Of a DNA stretch of 19,552 nucleotides, positions 8,843 to 16,852 are shown one piece after another (position 1 is the first letter of the stretch; each line of letters starts with the position of its first letter). The notes under the pieces are model-generated. The model made no database searches, had not been told where the DNA came from, and saw only the letters and a program-made list of their open reading frames with translations. Location of the stretch: positions 1 through 19,552 of IMG/VR virus record IMGVR_UViG_3300029562_000126. One strand, 5' to 3'. Position numbers and translations under genes: made by a program. The DNA is from a virus. Taxonomy: Duplodnaviria; Heunggongvirae; Uroviricota; Caudoviricetes.

Positions 8843-9076
8843 TTAGGCGGCAGAATTACTCGCGTTAAACAATGGTGCGAGGTCGGGACGAATATCTGCT
8901 GGTTTAATCTTTCCACCAGTGGCTGAGACAATTTTCATTACATAGCGGGCATCAATTCCGCCACCGTGTAGCCAACGCCAAACAGTGGGTTGGGCTACAC
9001 CGCATAGATCTGCCAGTCGTTTTTGACTACCTGTAATACTGATTGCGAGTTGAATGGTCTGATTTGTCATCATCAA
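8843..9076 (-). CDS. Cro-like HTH DNA-binding protein, divergent from the repressor
   Basis: 77-aa ORF with an HTH-like segment (QKRLADLCGVAQPTVWRWLHGG). Divergently arranged from the cI-like gene across a ~100-bp operator region. Confidence 0.7.
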   Translation of the reverse strand: MMMTNQTIQLAISITGSQKRLADLCGVAQPTVWRWLHGGGIDARYVMKIVSATGGKIKPADIRPDLAPLFNASNSAA

Positions 9077-9180
9077 TTCCTATTGGTATTGCAACGAATA
9101 GATAATAGCAATGCGTATTAAACCAAGCAATAGCAAAACGTGTTTTGACCATCAATACGCAAGCGTATAAATTAAAACTT
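9077..9180. promoter_or_regulatory. OR-like divergent promoter/operator region with repeated (A)TAGCAA(T) motifs; candidate pRM-like promoter (TTGACC ... TATAAA) directly upstream of the repressor ATG
   Basis: Sequence ...tattggtattgcaacgaatagataatagcaatgcgtattaaaccaagcaatagcaaaacgtgttttgaccatcaatacgcaagcgtataaattaaaacttATG. Repeated AGCAAT/ATTGCA half-site-like elements; -35/-10-like hexamers a few nt before the ATG suggest a near-leaderless repressor transcript. Confidence 0.5.
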
Positions 9181-9873
9181 ATGAAAAAAGAAACTCTTGC
9201 TGATCGCTTAAACCTAGCGATGGAACAATCTGGAATGTCTCAAGGCGCTCTTGCAAAGGCGTCTGGCGTAGCTCAACCCACAATCTGGAGACTGACAAGC
9301 GGCAACGCGCGCGGCTCAACAAAAATTGTTGAAATAGCTAATGCATTGGGTGTTCGAACAGAGTGGCTTTCATCAGGCATAGGCCCGATGAGAAATGACG
9401 GTCAACAATCAGGAAAGCCTGCTGTCAACCATTCCAAATACTTCAAGATTGACGTTCTTGATATAGAAGTCAGTGCTGGGCCGGGTGTCATCAACCGTGA
9501 GTTTGTAGAAGTCCTACGCTCGGTTGAGTACTCGTTTGACGATGCTCGTCACATGTTCGATGGCAGGAAGGCAGAAAATATCCGCATCATTAACGTACGC
9601 GGTGACAGCATGTCAGGAACGATCGAACCAGGTGATCTGCTGTTCGTTGATATCACTGTTAAATCTTTCGACGGTGATGGTATCTATGCGTTTCTGTACG
9701 ACGACACTGCCCATGTAAAGCGCCTGCAAATGATGAAGGATAAGCTGCTGGTTATCTCTGATAACAAGAGCTACTCACCGTGGGATCCGATCGAGAAAGA
9801 CGAGATGAACCGAGTGTTCATCTTTGGGAAAGTTATTGGGAGTATGCCTCAGACATATAGGAAGCATGGTTAA
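9145..9873 (+). CDS. CI-like prophage repressor (N-terminal HTH, C-terminal S24 LexA-type autopeptidase)
   Basis: Track ORF uses a TTG start; likely true start is the ATG at ~9181 (MKKETLADRL...). HTH (SQGALAKASGVAQPTIWRL) and S24 motif (GDSM ... K) are present. Confidence 0.85.
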   Translation: MTINTQAYKLKLMKKETLADRLNLAMEQSGMSQGALAKASGVAQPTIWRLTSGNARGSTKIVEIANALGVRTEWLSSGIGPMRNDGQQSGKPAVNHSKYFKIDVLDIEVSAGPGVINREFVEVLRSVEYSFDDARHMFDGRKAENIRIINVRGDSMSGTIEPGDLLFVDITVKSFDGDGIYAFLYDDTAHVKRLQMMKDKLLVISDNKSYSPWDPIEKDEMNRVFIFGKVIGSMPQTYRKHG

Positions 9874-9995
9874 AGTGAGGCTAAAAAACAGTTACAGCAA
9901 TAGGCCTGTTGTTTTTCTTTAAACACGCAGTGTTAAACCGCTCTTTGAGATGCGGAGTAATGAGATGGAAGACTTGAATCACATAAGGGTTAGTG

Positions 9996-10745
9996 ATGGA
10001 GTGCGTAGCGAGCAGCAATAGTGCAATACCTAATGTCGTTGAGGTAATACGTCGCATCAATGAAGGTTCCACTCAGCCATTTCTTTGCAAATGTGATGAT
10101 GGGCAGTTGTATGTTTTGAAGTCAAAACCATCAATGCCCCCGAAAAATCTCTTAGCTGAGTTCATTTCGGCGTGTTTGGCTAATGATATCGGCCTTCCTT
10201 TACCTGACTTTAAAATCGTATTTGTGCCAGAGGAACTTATAGAGTACTCACCTGATCTGCAGCAACAAATTTGTACAGGATATGCCTTTGCTTCATTGTT
10301 CATTGACGGTGCAATAGCGTTAACGTTTACGCAGTCAAGAAACGAAACGATCATCCCAGTCGAACAGCAAAAATTAATCTATGTTTTTGATAAATGGATA
10401 TTAAATGCAGACAGAACGCTTACTGACAAAGGTGGAAACGTTAACATCCTTTATGACATCAGTAACGATAAGTATTATCTGATTGACCATAATCTCTCAT
10501 TTGATCAGAATGCTGGACCTGAAGATTTTTCTGTGCACGTGTACGGCCCTGGTAACCGCAAATGGCAATATGATTTAGTGGATCGCGTAGAGTACCGCCA
10601 GAGGGTCGTTAACAGTTTACACAAGCTTCCTGCTATCCTTGACGAAATTCCAGAAGAGTGGATAGTAGATGAGGAGTTTTTACCTTTTGTCTGCACTACG
10701 CTAGACAAAGGTGATTGTGATGAATTTTGGAGCGCAATAGAATGA
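9996..10745 (+). CDS. Small HipA-like putative Ser/Thr protein kinase (HipA_C-like core only)
   Basis: 249-aa ORF (ATG 3 nt inside the track start). Kinase-like motifs LYVLKSK (candidate ATP-binding Lys), FDKWILNADRTLTDKGGN and YYLIDHNLSFD (D-H-N catalytic-loop-like). Lower GC than the phage core. Family call rests on motif recognition only. Confidence 0.55.
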   Translation: MECVASSNSAIPNVVEVIRRINEGSTQPFLCKCDDGQLYVLKSKPSMPPKNLLAEFISACLANDIGLPLPDFKIVFVPEELIEYSPDLQQQICTGYAFASLFIDGAIALTFTQSRNETIIPVEQQKLIYVFDKWILNADRTLTDKGGNVNILYDISNDKYYLIDHNLSFDQNAGPEDFSVHVYGPGNRKWQYDLVDRVEYRQRVVNSLHKLPAILDEIPEEWIVDEEFLPFVCTTLDKGDCDEFWSAIE

Positions 10746-11569
10746 CAACTCCATGCCTATATAGCATCGTTCGCTATGCGCCTTATGCGGAGACTGAAGA
10801 GTTCGCAAACATAGGCGTACTTCTGTGCGCGCCAAAAGAAAATTACTTTGATTTCCAGCTCACAAAGCGAAATGACTCTCGTGTAAAGAATTTTTTCCAT
10901 GATGATTGTATTTTCCCTGTAGCAAAAGACTCAATACAAAGAGAACTACAGTTCGCAAAAATGCATGCGACCCAGATTGTTGGACATCAACAACTTGCAC
11001 AATTCTTCAGATATTTTACAAACAAAAAAGAATCAATTTTTCAGTTCAGTTCTACGAGAGTGATTCTCAGCGAAAACCCAAAAGAAGAGCTGGCCCGCAT
11101 TTACAATAAATATGTAAACCACTCTGACTACACAAAAGAGCGCCGTGAAGATGTTCTAGCCAGAGAGCTAAAACGAAGTATCGATAGAATAGATGGATTG
11201 AAGAACGTCTTCAAACAAGCAACCATTGATGGGTATTTCGCAAAGTTCTCAATGCCATTGGTCGCCAAGAAGCATGACAGGATCCAATGTGCCATCAAAC
11301 CTCTGGCATTCACTCAAGCTGAACCAGGAAAAATGATGGAGCATAGTGATACTTGGGTGATGAGAATAACTCGAGCAGCAGAAGAAAACCTGCTTTCACT
11401 TGATGACATTTTATTCACAATTGAAACTCCTGAATCACCAAACTCAGGCCAAAGCAAAGTTATTGACATCATAAAGAGAACTATGGATGCTAAGAAAATA
11501 AATCATATACCTGCATCCAACCACAAAGAAACTATTGATTTTGCAAAAAAAATACTTCCCCAAGTTTAA
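10742..11569 (+). CDS. DUF3037-like protein with C-terminal extension
   Basis: ATG overlaps the kinase stop (ATGA), indicating translational coupling. N-terminus YSIVRYAPYAETEEFANIGVLLC matches the DUF3037 signature as recalled (Y.V.R..P....EEF.N.GV.L). AT-rich. Track ORF 10727..11569 begins at an upstream TTG. Confidence 0.55.
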   Translation: MTTPCLYSIVRYAPYAETEEFANIGVLLCAPKENYFDFQLTKRNDSRVKNFFHDDCIFPVAKDSIQRELQFAKMHATQIVGHQQLAQFFRYFTNKKESIFQFSSTRVILSENPKEELARIYNKYVNHSDYTKERREDVLARELKRSIDRIDGLKNVFKQATIDGYFAKFSMPLVAKKHDRIQCAIKPLAFTQAEPGKMMEHSDTWVMRITRAAEENLLSLDDILFTIETPESPNSGQSKVIDIIKRTMDAKKINHIPASNHKETIDFAKKILPQV

Positions 11570-11603
11570 AATTTATTTTTGTATGTGATATTCCTTATTA
11601 ATA

Positions 11604-11631
11604 ACCCGGCCACCGTGCCGGGTTTTCTTTT
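11604..11631 (+). terminator. Rho-independent terminator ending the cI / kinase / DUF3037 transcription unit (tIMM-like position)
   Basis: CCCGGC-CACCGT-GCCGGG hairpin followed by TTTTCTTTT, about 35 nt after the DUF3037 gene stop. Confidence 0.7.
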
Positions 11632-11771
11632 GCCTCCCCTCATCACACAAACCGCTCAAAAAACCACCACAACCCCGCTTCAGTTATCGCTATGCGATGC
11701 AAGTCACAAAATTAATTCTTTTTGCTATCAAACATTTAATATCAAAACACATCTAACGATAGCAATAAGTA

Positions 11772-11800
11772 TTGATATCACCAATAGCAATAGCTATTAT
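11772..11800 (+). promoter_or_regulatory. pL/OL-like promoter: TTGATA, 17-bp spacer, TATTAT, with operator-like CAATAGCAATAGC in the spacer
   Basis: Near-consensus sigma70 hexamers with 17-bp spacing read directly. The spacer and upstream sequence (~11720..11795) carry the same TAGCAA(T) motif family as the OR region. Correctly oriented to drive kil-position gene, gam, bet, exo, xis and int. Confidence 0.5.
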
Positions 11801-12074
11801 CACCATATCGCAACAACACAACGATACGGCAACCACCTGATTCACCGTTGCGATGACCGCTTAGATCCGCAGCTTGATTTCAGCAGGCTCCGGGGAGTGC
11901 GAGGGGTGAAACGGACGCGTGAACGTCGGTGTGACCAGCTGAAATCAACTCAACACTTCATACCTCAGTTGCTTCAACGAGGCGACTTAGTTATGACAAC
12001 CGGCGGCCATCCACCGCCAAATACTGCGCAACCCCTTATTTGTTCAGCAGCCCAGCTTACGGGCAGGAGTTTTT

Positions 12075-12281
12075 ATGGTTCATCAACATTACGGAACGCA
12101 GACCGTTAATCGCGGTGCGGTCATGCCAGGAATGCTGGTCAAACACAAAGATGGTACCTGGACTGCATCAGCTAATTTACGCGGACGGCTTTATCTGCAT
12201 CGCGGCATCGAGCGCACTTATACCCGTGATTTGCTCGTGGAAGTTTTTCTCGACGGACGCGGTAACGGCCTGAATCACTAA
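12075..12281 (+). CDS. Hypothetical small protein in the kil/cIII position upstream of gam
   Basis: 68-aa ORF with a strong RBS (GCAGGAGT) 8 nt upstream of the ATG. No family recognised. Confidence 0.55.
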   Translation: MVHQHYGTQTVNRGAVMPGMLVKHKDGTWTASANLRGRLYLHRGIERTYTRDLLVEVFLDGRGNGLNH

Positions 12282-12357
12282 CCCCCCTTTCCTGTTTTCC
12301 TAATCAGCCTGGCATTTCGCGGGCGATATTTTCACAGCCATTTTCAGGAGTTCAGCC

Positions 12358-12654
12358 ATGAACGCTTATTACATTCAGGATCGTCTTGAGGCTCAGAGCT
12401 GGGCGCGTCACTACCAGCAGATCGCCCGTGAAGAGAAAGAGGCAGAACTGGCAAACGACATGGAAAAAGGCCTGCCCCAGCACCTGTTTGAATCGCTATG
12501 CATCGATCATTTGCAACGCCACGGGGCCAGCAAAAAAGCCATTACCCGTGCGTTTGATGACGATGTTGAGTTTCAGGAGCGCATGGCAGAACACATCCGG
12601 TACATGGTTGAAACCATTGCTCACCACCAGGTTGATATTGATTCAGAGGTATAA
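12358..12654 (+). CDS. gam: Gam (RecBCD inhibitor), short GamS-length form
   Basis: 98-aa [24 protein letters not shown]...HQVDIDSEV matches lambda Gam as recalled. CAGGAG RBS. Confidence 0.9.
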
Positions 12655-12659
12655 AACGG

Positions 12660-13445
12660 ATGAGTACAGCACTCGCAACGCTGGCAGGGAAGCTGGCTGA
12701 ACGTGTCGGCATGGATTCTGTCGACCCACAGGAACTGATCACCACTCTTCGCCAGACGGCATTTAAAGGTGATGCCAGCGATGCGCAGTTCATCGCATTG
12801 TTGATCGTCGCCAACCAGTACGGCCTTAATCCGTGGACGAAAGAAATTTACGCCTTCCCTGATAAGCAGAACGGCATCGTTCCGGTGGTGGGCGTTGATG
12901 GCTGGTCCCGCATCATCAATGAAAACCAGCAGTTTGATGGCATGGACTTTGAGCAGGACAATGAATCCTGTACATGCCGGATTTACCGCAAGGACCGTAA
13001 TCATCCGATCTGCGTTACCGAATGGATGGATGAATGCCGCCGCGAACCATTCAAAACTCGCGAAGGCAGAGAAATCACGGGGCCGTGGCAGTCGCATCCC
13101 AAACGGATGTTACGGCATAAAGCCATGATTCAGTGTGCCCGTCTGGCCTTCGGATTTGCTGGTATCTATGACAAGGATGAAGCCGAGCGCATTGTCGAAA
13201 ATACTGCATACACTGCAGAACGTCAGCCAGAACGCGACATCACTCCGGTTAACGATGAAACCATGCAGGAGATTAACACTCTGCTGATCTCCCTGGATAA
13301 AACATGGGATGACGACTTATTGCCGCTCTGTTCCCAGATATTTCGCCGCGACATTCGCGCATCGTCAGAACTGACACAGGCCGAAGCAGTGAAAGCTCTT
13401 GGATTCCTGAAACAGAAAGCCACTGAGCAGAAGGTGGCAGCATGA
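12660..13445 (+). CDS. bet: Bet (Red-beta single-strand annealing protein)
   Basis: 261-aa ORF essentially identical to lambda Bet as recalled ([66 protein letters not shown]...). Confidence 0.95.
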
Positions 13446-14122
13446 CACCGGACATTATCCTGCAGCGTACCGGGATCGACGTGAGAGCTGTCGAACAGGG
13501 GGATGATGCATGGCACAAATTACGGCTCGGCGTCATCACCGCTTCAGAAGTTCACAACGTGATAGCAAAGCCCCGATCAGGAAAGAAGTGGCCTGACATG
13601 AAAATGTCCTACTTCCACACCCTGCTGGCTGAGGTTTGCACCGGTGTGGCTCCGGAAGTTAACGCTAAAGCGCTGGCCTGGGGAAAACAGTACGAGAACG
13701 ACGCCAGAACCCTGTTTGAGTTCACTTCCGGCGTAAATGTTATTGAATCCCCGATCATCTATCGCGACGAAAGTATGCGCACCGCCTGCTCTCCCGATGG
13801 TTTATGCAGTGACGGCAATGGCCTTGAGCTGAAATGCCCGTTTACCTCCCGGGATTTCATGAAGTTCCGGCTCGGTGGTTTCGAGGCCATAAAGTCGGCT
13901 TACATGGCCCAGGTGCAGTACAGCATGTGGGTGACGCGAAAAGATGCCTGGTACTTTGCCAACTATGACCCGCGTATGAAGCGTGAAGGCCTGCATTATG
14001 TCGTGATTGAGCGGAATGAAAAGTACATGGCGAATTTTGACGAGATGGTGCCGGAGTTCATCGAAAAAATGGACGTGGCACTGGCTGAAATTGGTTTTGT
14101 ATTTGGGGAGCAATGGCGATGA
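13442..14122 (+). CDS. exo: Exo (lambda 5'-3' exonuclease, Red-alpha)
   Basis: 226-aa ORF essentially identical to lambda Exo as recalled ([65 protein letters not shown]...). ATGA overlap with bet. Confidence 0.95.
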
Positions 14123-15400: not shown

Positions 15401-15722
15401 GGCCTGTCAGTTTCTCAAGATATCCAGACCTACCGCTACCAACTGGATACGAACAGGCCGCCTACAGGCAACACGCAAAGACCCCACTAAACTAAAATCT
15501 CCTTACCTCACAACACGACAAGCCTGCATTGCGGCACTTCAGTCTCCGCTGCATACTGTCAAGGTGAGCGCGGGTGATGGCATAACAGAGGAAAGAAAAT
15601 GTCACTCTTCCGCAGAAGTGAAATATGGTACGCCAGTTTCACATTGCCGAACGGTAAAAGATTTAAACAGTCTCTTGGAACAAAGGACAAAAGGCAGGCG
15701 ACAGAGCTCCATGACAAGCTAA
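15372..15722 (+). CDS. xis: Excisionase (P22 Xis-type)
   Basis: Track ORF 15342..15722; the internal ATG ([31 protein letters not shown]...) gives 116 aa, matching P22 Xis as recalled. Overlaps the int start. Confidence 0.75.
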
Positions 15723-16762
15723 AGGCTGAAGCATGGCGGGTCAGCAAACTTGGTGAAATACCTGATATGACGTTCGAGGAAGCGTGTGTCAGGTGGCTTG
15801 AAGAGAAAGCACATAAAAAATCACTGGACGATGACAAAAGCCGGATCGGATTCTGGCTTCAACATTTCGCAGGGATGCAATTAAGAGACATTACTGAATC
15901 AAAAATTTATTCAGCAATTCAGAAAATGACGAACCGGCGTCATGAGGAAAACTGGAAACTCAGGGCAGAAGCATGCAGAAAAAAAGGGAAACCTGTTCCA
16001 GAATACACGCCAAAACCAGCGTCCGTTGCAACGAAGGCAACGCATCTTTCATTTATAAAGGCCCTGCTAAGAGCCGCAGAGCGTGAATGGAAAATGCTGG
16101 ATAAGGCACCAATTATTAAAGTGCCTCAACCAAAGAATAAACGGATCCGCTGGCTGGAGCCTCATGAAGCACAAAGGCTGATTGATGAATGTCCGGAGCC
16201 ATTAAAGTCTGTTGTTGAATTTGCACTGGCAACAGGTTTAAGACGCTCAAACATCATCAACCTTGAATGGCAACAAATAGACATGCAGCGCCGGGTGGCA
16301 TGGATAAACCCGGAAGAGAGTAAATCAAACCGCGCAATTGGCGTTGCGCTGAATGATACTGCATGTCGTGTATTGAAAAAACAAATCGGGAATCATCACC
16401 GTTGGGTATTTGTGTACAAGGAAAGCTGTACCAAACCAGACGGAACGAAAGCGCCAACAGTAAGGAAGATGCGGTATGACGCAAACACAGCCTGGAAAGC
16501 GGCGCTGAGACGGGCTGGTATTGATGATTTCAGATTTCACGACTTGAGACACACCTGGGCAAGTTGGCTGGTTCAAGCCGGAGTCCCGTTGTCAGTGTTA
16601 CAGGAAATGGGAGGCTGGGAGTCTATCGAAATGGTTCGTCGATATGCTCACCTTGCACCTAATCACCTTACCGAACACGCACGGCAAATAGACTCGATCC
16701 TGAACCCATCGGTCCCAAATTTGTCCCAGTCAAAAAATAAGGAAGGTACTAATGATGTGTAA
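15599..16762 (+). CDS. int: Tyrosine integrase, P22 Int-type (thrW-specific)
   Basis: 387-aa [44 protein letters not shown]... with C-terminal catalytic region ([15 protein letters not shown]...RYAH). Ends 14 nt before the 3' end of tRNA-Thr and is transcribed toward it. Confidence 0.93.
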
Positions 16763-16776
16763 CTTATTGATTTAAA

Positions 16777-16852
16777 TGGTGCCGATAATAGGAGTCGAAC
16801 CTACGACCTTCGCATTACGAATGCGCTGCTCTACCAACTGAGCTATATCGGC
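16777..16852 (-). tRNA. thrW: tRNA-Thr (anticodon CGU), including 3' CCA; prophage attachment target
   Basis: The reverse complement reads GCCGATATAGCTCAGTTGGTAGAGCAGCGCATTCGTAATGCGAAGGTCGTAGGTTCGACTCCTATTATCGGCACCA (76 nt, cloverleaf-compatible, anticodon loop TTCGTAA). Confidence 0.93.

Follow-up and report, generated by a model that had tools for sequence, protein, structure and literature searches.

Introduction

Systems that join a HipA-like kinase to a DUF3037 protein are the closest described relatives of a gene pair, hipA and hipD, that we analysed in a 19,552-nt stretch of viral DNA (IMG/VR record IMGVR_UViG_3300029562_000126; hereafter the window, whose positions serve as coordinates throughout). 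One of them was reported in the DefensePredictor study (Science 2026, PMC13092281) as DS-6, a system with two proteins, namely DS-6A, a HipA-related kinase, and DS-6B, to which DUF3037 and DUF1829 were assigned. DS-6 was cloned in Escherichia coli MG1655 and, assayed from a plasmid, gave strong protection that depended on the kinase: in one paired row of the data the -log efficiency of plating (EOP) of Bas1 was 5.18 with the wild type and 0.88 with the D139A mutant, while an earlier wild-type row gave 3.90 (PMC13092281). AlphaFold3 joined DS-6A to DS-6B with an interface predicted template modelling score (ipTM) of 0.76-0.79, and the authors proposed a system resembling toxin-antitoxin (TA) modules, crediting the name HipAD to Brenes & Laub 2025 (PMC13092281).

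The second report concerns a HipA-like/DUF3037 pair situated beside Retron-Sda1 (PLoS Biology 2025, PMC12548924), where the call PDC-M66 by PADLOC was noted. This pair alone defended against Bas51, the reverse transcriptase (RT) and noncoding RNA (ncRNA) of the retron being dispensable. Deletion of the HipA gene abolished defence, and deletion of the DUF3037 gene was toxic (PMC12548924). Our literature searches turned up no further phage-related text on HipD or HipAD.

Results

The two proteins of the window are those of a system that has already been named and tested. Among phage records, megablast picked out Escherichia phage PhiR5_1 (GenBank PV340545.1), a member of the PhiR phage series, whose depositors annotated a "HipA toxin" and a "HipD antitoxin"; the window proteins are identical to these at 249 of 249 and 275 of 275 residues. 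They are also string-identical to DS-6A (WP_000389051.1) and DS-6B (WP_000210934.1). By every sequence criterion tested, the window pair is the published and tested HipAD, also known as DS-6 or as the PADLOC defence candidate PDC-M66, and others have shown on the identical sequence that this exact pair defends and that most of its protection needs D139. It is no new discovery, the exact pair having been published, named, deposited in GenBank and validated experimentally. What the present analysis adds is the predicted folds of HipA and of the C-terminal domain of HipD.

An initial annotation of the window, made from its letters and open reading frames (ORFs), had proposed a defence or exclusion module in the rexA-rexB slot, with a kinase effector and a DUF3037 partner or regulator. 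The published experiments bear this out, through the loss of protection in D139A (PMC13092281) and through the deletions in the Sda1-adjacent homolog (PMC12548924). Its author knew of no characterised system with this composition, and on that point it was mistaken, since the pair is HipAD (PV340545.1), DS-6 and PDC-M66.

HipA has a single Pfam match at E <= 1, to HipA_2 (PF20613, "HipA-like kinase"; E 9.7e-77), which spans residues 14-247 of 249, and it matches PADLOC model PDC-M66A with E 6e-15. The first protein had been likened to HipA_C and CtkA-type kinases; Pfam thus agrees on a kinase family, although the family is HipA_2 and not HipA_C, and it agrees that the second protein is a DUF3037 protein with about 150 extra residues at its C-terminus. 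Across 26 homologs K42, D139-R140, G146-G147-N148 and D164-H165-N166 are invariant, a set consistent with an ATP-binding lysine, a catalytic loop and a metal-binding aspartate. The D139 that was mutated in DS-6 is the aspartate of an NADR motif that the initial annotation had flagged, and belongs to this invariant set.

The AlphaFold2 model of HipA was confident, with a predicted local distance difference test score (pLDDT) of 89 and a predicted template modelling score (pTM) of 0.88. Searched with Foldseek against structures in the Protein Data Bank (PDB), the model gave PI4KII-alpha and Helicobacter pylori CtkA as its best folds, at template modelling (TM) scores of ~0.55-0.60, followed by HipA of Shewanella and of E. 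coli and by HipT of Legionella, with canonical HipA at TM ~0.40-0.44. The Foldseek probability was 1.0 for CtkA, PI4KII-alpha, Shewanella HipA and Legionella HipT. The structural comparison thus sided with the kinase prediction of the initial annotation. HipA is a minimal kinase core that lacks the N-terminal subdomains of canonical HipA, and its predicted fold is like those of PI4K, CtkA and HipA. Sequence searches for relatives of solved structure returned only chance matches at E <= 10 for HipA and HipD. Both proteins belong to PHROGs families of function not assigned, and neither is covered by a model in NCBIfam.

Of the 275 residues of HipD, 7-125 match DUF3037 (PF11236; E 7.6e-24) and 7-271 match PADLOC model PDC-M66B (E 3.8e-16), and all 33 HipD homologs that we aligned match PDC-M66B. 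The Pfam scores of HipA and HipD greatly exceed what chance would give. The C-terminal region of ~150 residues had no Pfam match. We also looked there for the DUF1829 that the DS-6 authors had assigned to DS-6B by HHpred with a probability of 0.78 (PMC13092281); HMMER found none in the 33 homologs at E <= 1. No helix-turn-helix (HTH) family was significant in any of the 33. The AlphaFold2 model of HipD was confident within each domain (pLDDT 91), and its pTM of 0.56 fits a protein of two domains, 1-125 and 132-275, placed with uncertainty relative to each other. No HipS or HipA-N-like fold stood among the top 50-60 HipD fold matches listed.

The modelled C-terminal domain of HipD appears to follow the order alpha-beta-beta-beta-alpha-beta that is typical of PD-(D/E)xK enzymes. 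We mapped the positions of the catalytic motifs from the strand order of the model, not from a superposition. In the 33-homolog alignment the PD position reads P172-[L/F] and the (D/E)xK position reads [A/V/T/I/L]184-I185-K186, and neither is ever acidic; in this domain only E136, P172 and K186 are conserved or invariant. Because the positions expected to hold metal-binding acids are not acidic, we read the domain as probably a restriction-endonuclease-like fold that is catalytically inactive.

Of 5426 complete E. coli genomes, 284 carry the 1574-bp pair, and in these the two genes are always adjacent, single-copy, chromosomal and at least 95% identical; RefSeq labels the products "HipA family kinase" and "DUF3037 domain-containing protein". 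Few phage records carry it. A tblastn search with HipA against 50,697 of them (E <= 0.01) found only three with the pair: PhiR5_1; Klebsiella phage Kp4864-1, with an S24 repressor upstream; and Salmonella phage SW-37, with an HTH protein upstream. In SW-37 (CP051275.1) hipA (2480-3219) is frameshifted after ~45 codons and hipD (3216-4034) is intact. The broken hipA may be a pseudogene or may reflect a sequencing error, and a lone antitoxin-like gene would fit a TA model.

Protein searches yielded 71 HipA_2 clusters and 121 DUF3037 clusters, many of whose members are paired on the same contig or by adjacent locus tags. The order of the pair and its 4-nt overlap are kept down to ~25-35% identity, also outside prophages: the co-occurrence that the initial annotation suggested looking for is present in Pseudomonas, Idiomarina and Sphingomonas, whose pairs have no recognisable phage genes nearby. 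HipAD is an autonomous two-gene module. Plasmid carriage was confined to two records of Pantoea megaplasmids, which hold a distant pair of 68% identity.

At least three immunity regions are found together with HipAD, and the window differs in this respect from the phage in which the pair was annotated under its current name. When positions 9100-12400 were compared, the megablast match to PhiR5_1 began inside cI, at query position 323. The pL/OL stretch of the window is 84.8% identical to that of PhiR5_1 versus 93-95% to the 4A7/PhiR30_1 type; it is with the 4A7/PhiR30_1 immunity group, whose slot holds other cargo, that the pL region and the start of cI agree. In a sister phage, PhiR47_2, a "GevT toxin" and a "GevA antitoxin" fill the same slot after cI. 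Given these differing combinations of cargo and immunity region, and GevTA in the slot, the position downstream of cI is a hotspot of cargo exchange.

Pfam matches and comparison with annotated relatives identified the window as part of an E. coli-type chromosome with a lambdoid prophage. Its map is drawn reversed relative to lambda, and the features around the pair are as follows.

6559-7260, minus strand: replication gene P
7257-8276, minus strand: replication gene O
8273-8812, minus strand: YdaT-domain protein in the cII position
8843-9076, minus strand: cro
9145/9181-9873, plus strand: cI-type repressor (Peptidase_S24, E 1.5e-18; HTH_3, E 1.5e-6)
9874-9995, plus strand: cI-hipA spacer of 122 nt, with a Shine-Dalgarno-like AAGGG 8 nt before the ATG
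9996-10745, plus strand: hipA, 249 aa when read from its ATG (250 aa when read from a GTG at 9993)
10742-11569, plus strand: hipD, 275 aa
10742-10745, plus strand: ATGA stop/start overlap of hipA and hipD, seen in the sequence
11603-11634, plus strand: intrinsic-terminator-like hairpin and T-run, with the tail TTCTTTTGCC
11755-11805, plus strand: pL/OL-like region, with a promoter-like site and operator-like ATAGCAAT motifs
Between the pL/OL-like region and gam: kil
12358-12654: gam
12660-13445: bet
13442-14122: exo
15599-16762, plus strand: integrase
16777-16852, minus strand: tRNA-Thr(CGT), end of the prophage

What the initial annotation had described of this layout stood up. Both ORFs are co-directional, on the plus strand, and share the ATGA; the motifs that it quoted (LYVLKSK, NADRTLTDKGGN, LIDHNLSFD and YSIVRYAPYAETEEFANIGVLLC) were all found in the translations. 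The pair does sit between a cI-like repressor, here of the S24 type, and a terminator that precedes a pL/OL-like promoter, which we recovered as the hairpin with its T-run and as TTGATA-17-TATTAT. Both genes are richer in AT than the phage core, with a GC content of 0.41 for hipA and 0.39 for hipD versus 0.47 for the window, 0.46 for cI and ~0.52 for gam-bet-exo. As it had also said, neither protein resembles RexA or RexB, no Rex family being among the Pfam matches at E <= 1.

The longest form of the repressor ORF begins at TTG 9145, and its likely start is ATG 9181; cI is annotated at the equivalent position in PhiR5_1. PhiR5_1 and two E. coli prophages likewise have the pair in the slot between cI and the terminator before pL, on the cI strand. 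The order cI, HipA, DUF3037, kil, gam, bet, exo was found in both of the E. coli prophage contexts that we examined, in one of which the repressor and cro proteins differ, as judged by accessions. At the far end the integrase abuts tRNA-Thr(CGT), beyond which ORFs (up to 19422) are located where a collinear relative has proA and proB, and this places the integration of the element at thrW-proA.

A terminator scan of the 122-nt spacer between cI and hipA found none, and the spacer folded no better than shuffled sequences (z = 0.13), which makes it plausible that hipAD is co-transcribed with cI. The ATGA overlap suggests that hipA and hipD are translationally coupled. Downstream of the pair, the hairpin at 11603-11624 has eight pairs, six of them G-C, and is followed by the T-run; its fold scored z = -2.78 against shuffles, 2 of 200 of which folded equally well. 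Among the sigma-70-like sites in the region scanned, TTGATA-17-TATTAT at 11772-11800 scored best, agreeing with the consensus at 10 of 12 positions. The motif ATAGCAAT flanks or overlaps this pL-like site and is common to the OR region between cro and cI (9077-9180). It has four copies in the window against 0.77 expected, three of the four lying within the OR and OL regions.

No N-like gene was found between the pL-like promoter and kil (11640-12075), and because of this we considered a structured antiterminator RNA of the put type in the pL leader. The candidate was rejected: 11805-11990 folded with z = -0.42 against shuffles and had no Rfam match. In the same leader, ~62-74 nt at ~11957-12030 are conserved (78-94%) in unannotated DNA of HK225, three Enterobacter phages and a Klebsiella phage.

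Several other genes of the window deserve mention. The 179-aa protein encoded at 8273-8812 on the minus strand has a YdaT_toxin domain (Pfam E 7.4e-30) and is not a lambda-type CII, though it is called "cII" in PhiR5_1. The 500-aa ORF at 4509-6011 on the plus strand matches PADLOC model PD-Lambda-1 (E 1.9e-198), so the prophage bears a second defence gene that is already catalogued. Its product has DUF4041 and T5orf172/MUG113 domains, and the ORF lies where the window is richest in AT (GC 0.29-0.40). It lies on the strand opposite to its neighbours, between the nin region and a gene at 6260-6562 that adjoins replication gene P. Beside the Q antiterminator region, a position where lambdoid phages carry morons, are a YbgA-family protein (384-1343, minus strand) with a 2-thiouracil desulfurase domain and DUF1722, and a lipocalin-family protein (1536-2060, plus strand). 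The same arrangement is present in 452 E. coli genomes, where it covers 80% or more of window positions 1-4500 used as the query. A match at 2087-2130 on the minus strand to the Rfam family "Betaproteobacteria toxic sRNA" was weak, at 28.6 bits where the gathering score is 50 (E 0.034), and is probably due to chance.

Discussion

We consider it likely that HipAD is anti-phage cargo carried downstream of the repressor, HipA being a growth-arresting kinase toxin that HipD holds inactive until infection. HipA would act as a compact kinase toxin of the HipA/PI4K/CtkA type. In the lysogen, transcription from the maintenance promoter would run through cI into hipAD, much as it does into rexAB, and end at the terminator at 11603-11634; hipAD may have its own promoter in addition. 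HipD would bind HipA through its DUF3037 domain, its nuclease-like C-terminal domain or both, and the kinase would be kept inactive. Infection by a sensitive phage would lift this inhibition, and the released HipA would then phosphorylate a target and stop phage production, probably by abortive infection through growth arrest.

Some points weigh against this mechanism. That HipA is toxic on its own and that HipD neutralises it are inferred from the Sda1-adjacent homolog and from the AlphaFold3 prediction, and abortive infection is a hypothesis of the DS-6 authors.

The target of canonical HipA is GltX, and that of HipT is TrpS. Another reading, possible though in our view doubtful, makes HipD the phage sensor and not a passive antitoxin: its dead nuclease-like C-terminal domain, with E136, P172 and K186 kept and both metal-binding acids lost, would recognise a phage DNA structure or protein and free a kinase whose substrate is not an aminoacyl-tRNA synthetase. 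If this were true, HipAD would be a kinase-based immune sensor-effector pair and not a classical TA module.

We think it unlikely that the defence is instead direct and non-abortive, with the kinase phosphorylating a phage protein or a needed host factor without causing arrest and HipD serving as its specificity or sensor subunit. Such a role would suit the fold of HipA, which by TM score is nearer to those of PI4KII and CtkA than to that of canonical HipA, and would suit a kinase without the N-terminal subdomains, whose substrate need not be an aminoacyl-tRNA synthetase; it also gains from abortive infection being a hypothesis of the DS-6 authors (PMC13092281). However, loss of the DUF3037 gene in the homolog was toxic to uninfected cells, which points to a host target and to antitoxin behaviour (PMC12548924), and the depositors of PhiR5_1 likewise labelled the proteins toxin and antitoxin.

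Could the pair be mainly an addiction module that retains the prophage, with defence as a side effect? Its architecture resembles that of TA modules, in that the genes overlap and a toxic kinase is joined to a neutralising partner, and it is carried on a mobile element. We nevertheless regard this as improbable, for the exact pair gave strong kinase-dependent protection from a plasmid (PMC13092281), homologs are found in chromosomal contexts that are not prophages, and the slot is one known for exclusion genes such as rexAB and holds GevTA, annotated as toxin and antitoxin, in a sister phage. That HipD is the effector, as a PD-(D/E)xK nuclease for which the kinase is only regulatory, is hardly tenable despite its predicted fold, given that the positions for metal-binding acids (placed by strand order) are never acidic in 33 homologs, that D139A in the kinase removes most of the defence (PMC13092281) and that loss of DUF3037 is toxic and not neutral (PMC12548924).

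The growth-arresting kinase toxin that we favour invites comparison with canonical HipBA and HipBST, with which HipAD shares the HipA/CtkA/PI4K kinase fold, the catalytic aspartate D139 with a second aspartate at D164, and the proposed logic of a toxin plus a neutraliser. Judged from its sequence, HipAD is nevertheless not a canonical HipBA module, because the kinase is short, matches HipA_2 only and has no HipB. Canonical HipA has ~440 residues, and the HipAD kinase is ~190 residues shorter than the HipA chains of 415-438 residues in the PDB; it does not match HipA_C, HipA_N or Couple_hipA. Its partner lacks any HTH or HipB-like domain and is encoded downstream, while the gene upstream is the phage cI.

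Kinase-based exclusion near an immunity region has a precedent in Stk of prophage 933W. Like Stk, HipAD excludes other phages by means of a protein kinase encoded in a prophage; unlike Stk, it has two components. We considered Stk as a possible homolog of HipA, but the tblastn search described above returned no match in 933W or any Stx phage, so that no relationship of HipAD to Stk is detectable by sequence.

The rexAB genes of lambda lie between cI and the terminator before pL and are exclusion genes expressed in the lysogen; RexAB is an ion-channel-type system without a kinase. HipAD has the same slot and orientation and is likewise a two-gene exclusion module, whereas there is no sequence relationship between the two.

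The Sda1-adjacent pair, PDC-M66, has the same two-gene architecture as HipAD. It stands beside the RT and ncRNA of a type III retron, of which we saw none among the neighbouring genes that we examined in the window, and the C-terminal region of its DUF3037 protein reportedly resembles the retron DNA-binding protein, whereas that of HipD in the window is predicted to be restriction-endonuclease-like. The closest comparison remains with HipAD of PhiR5_1 and DS-6, which has the same proteins, gene order, overlap and position between cI and kil-gam-bet-exo and differs in the immunity region around it. The window thus presents HipAD in an immunity module unlike that of the phage that names it, and illustrates the exchange of cargo downstream of cI.

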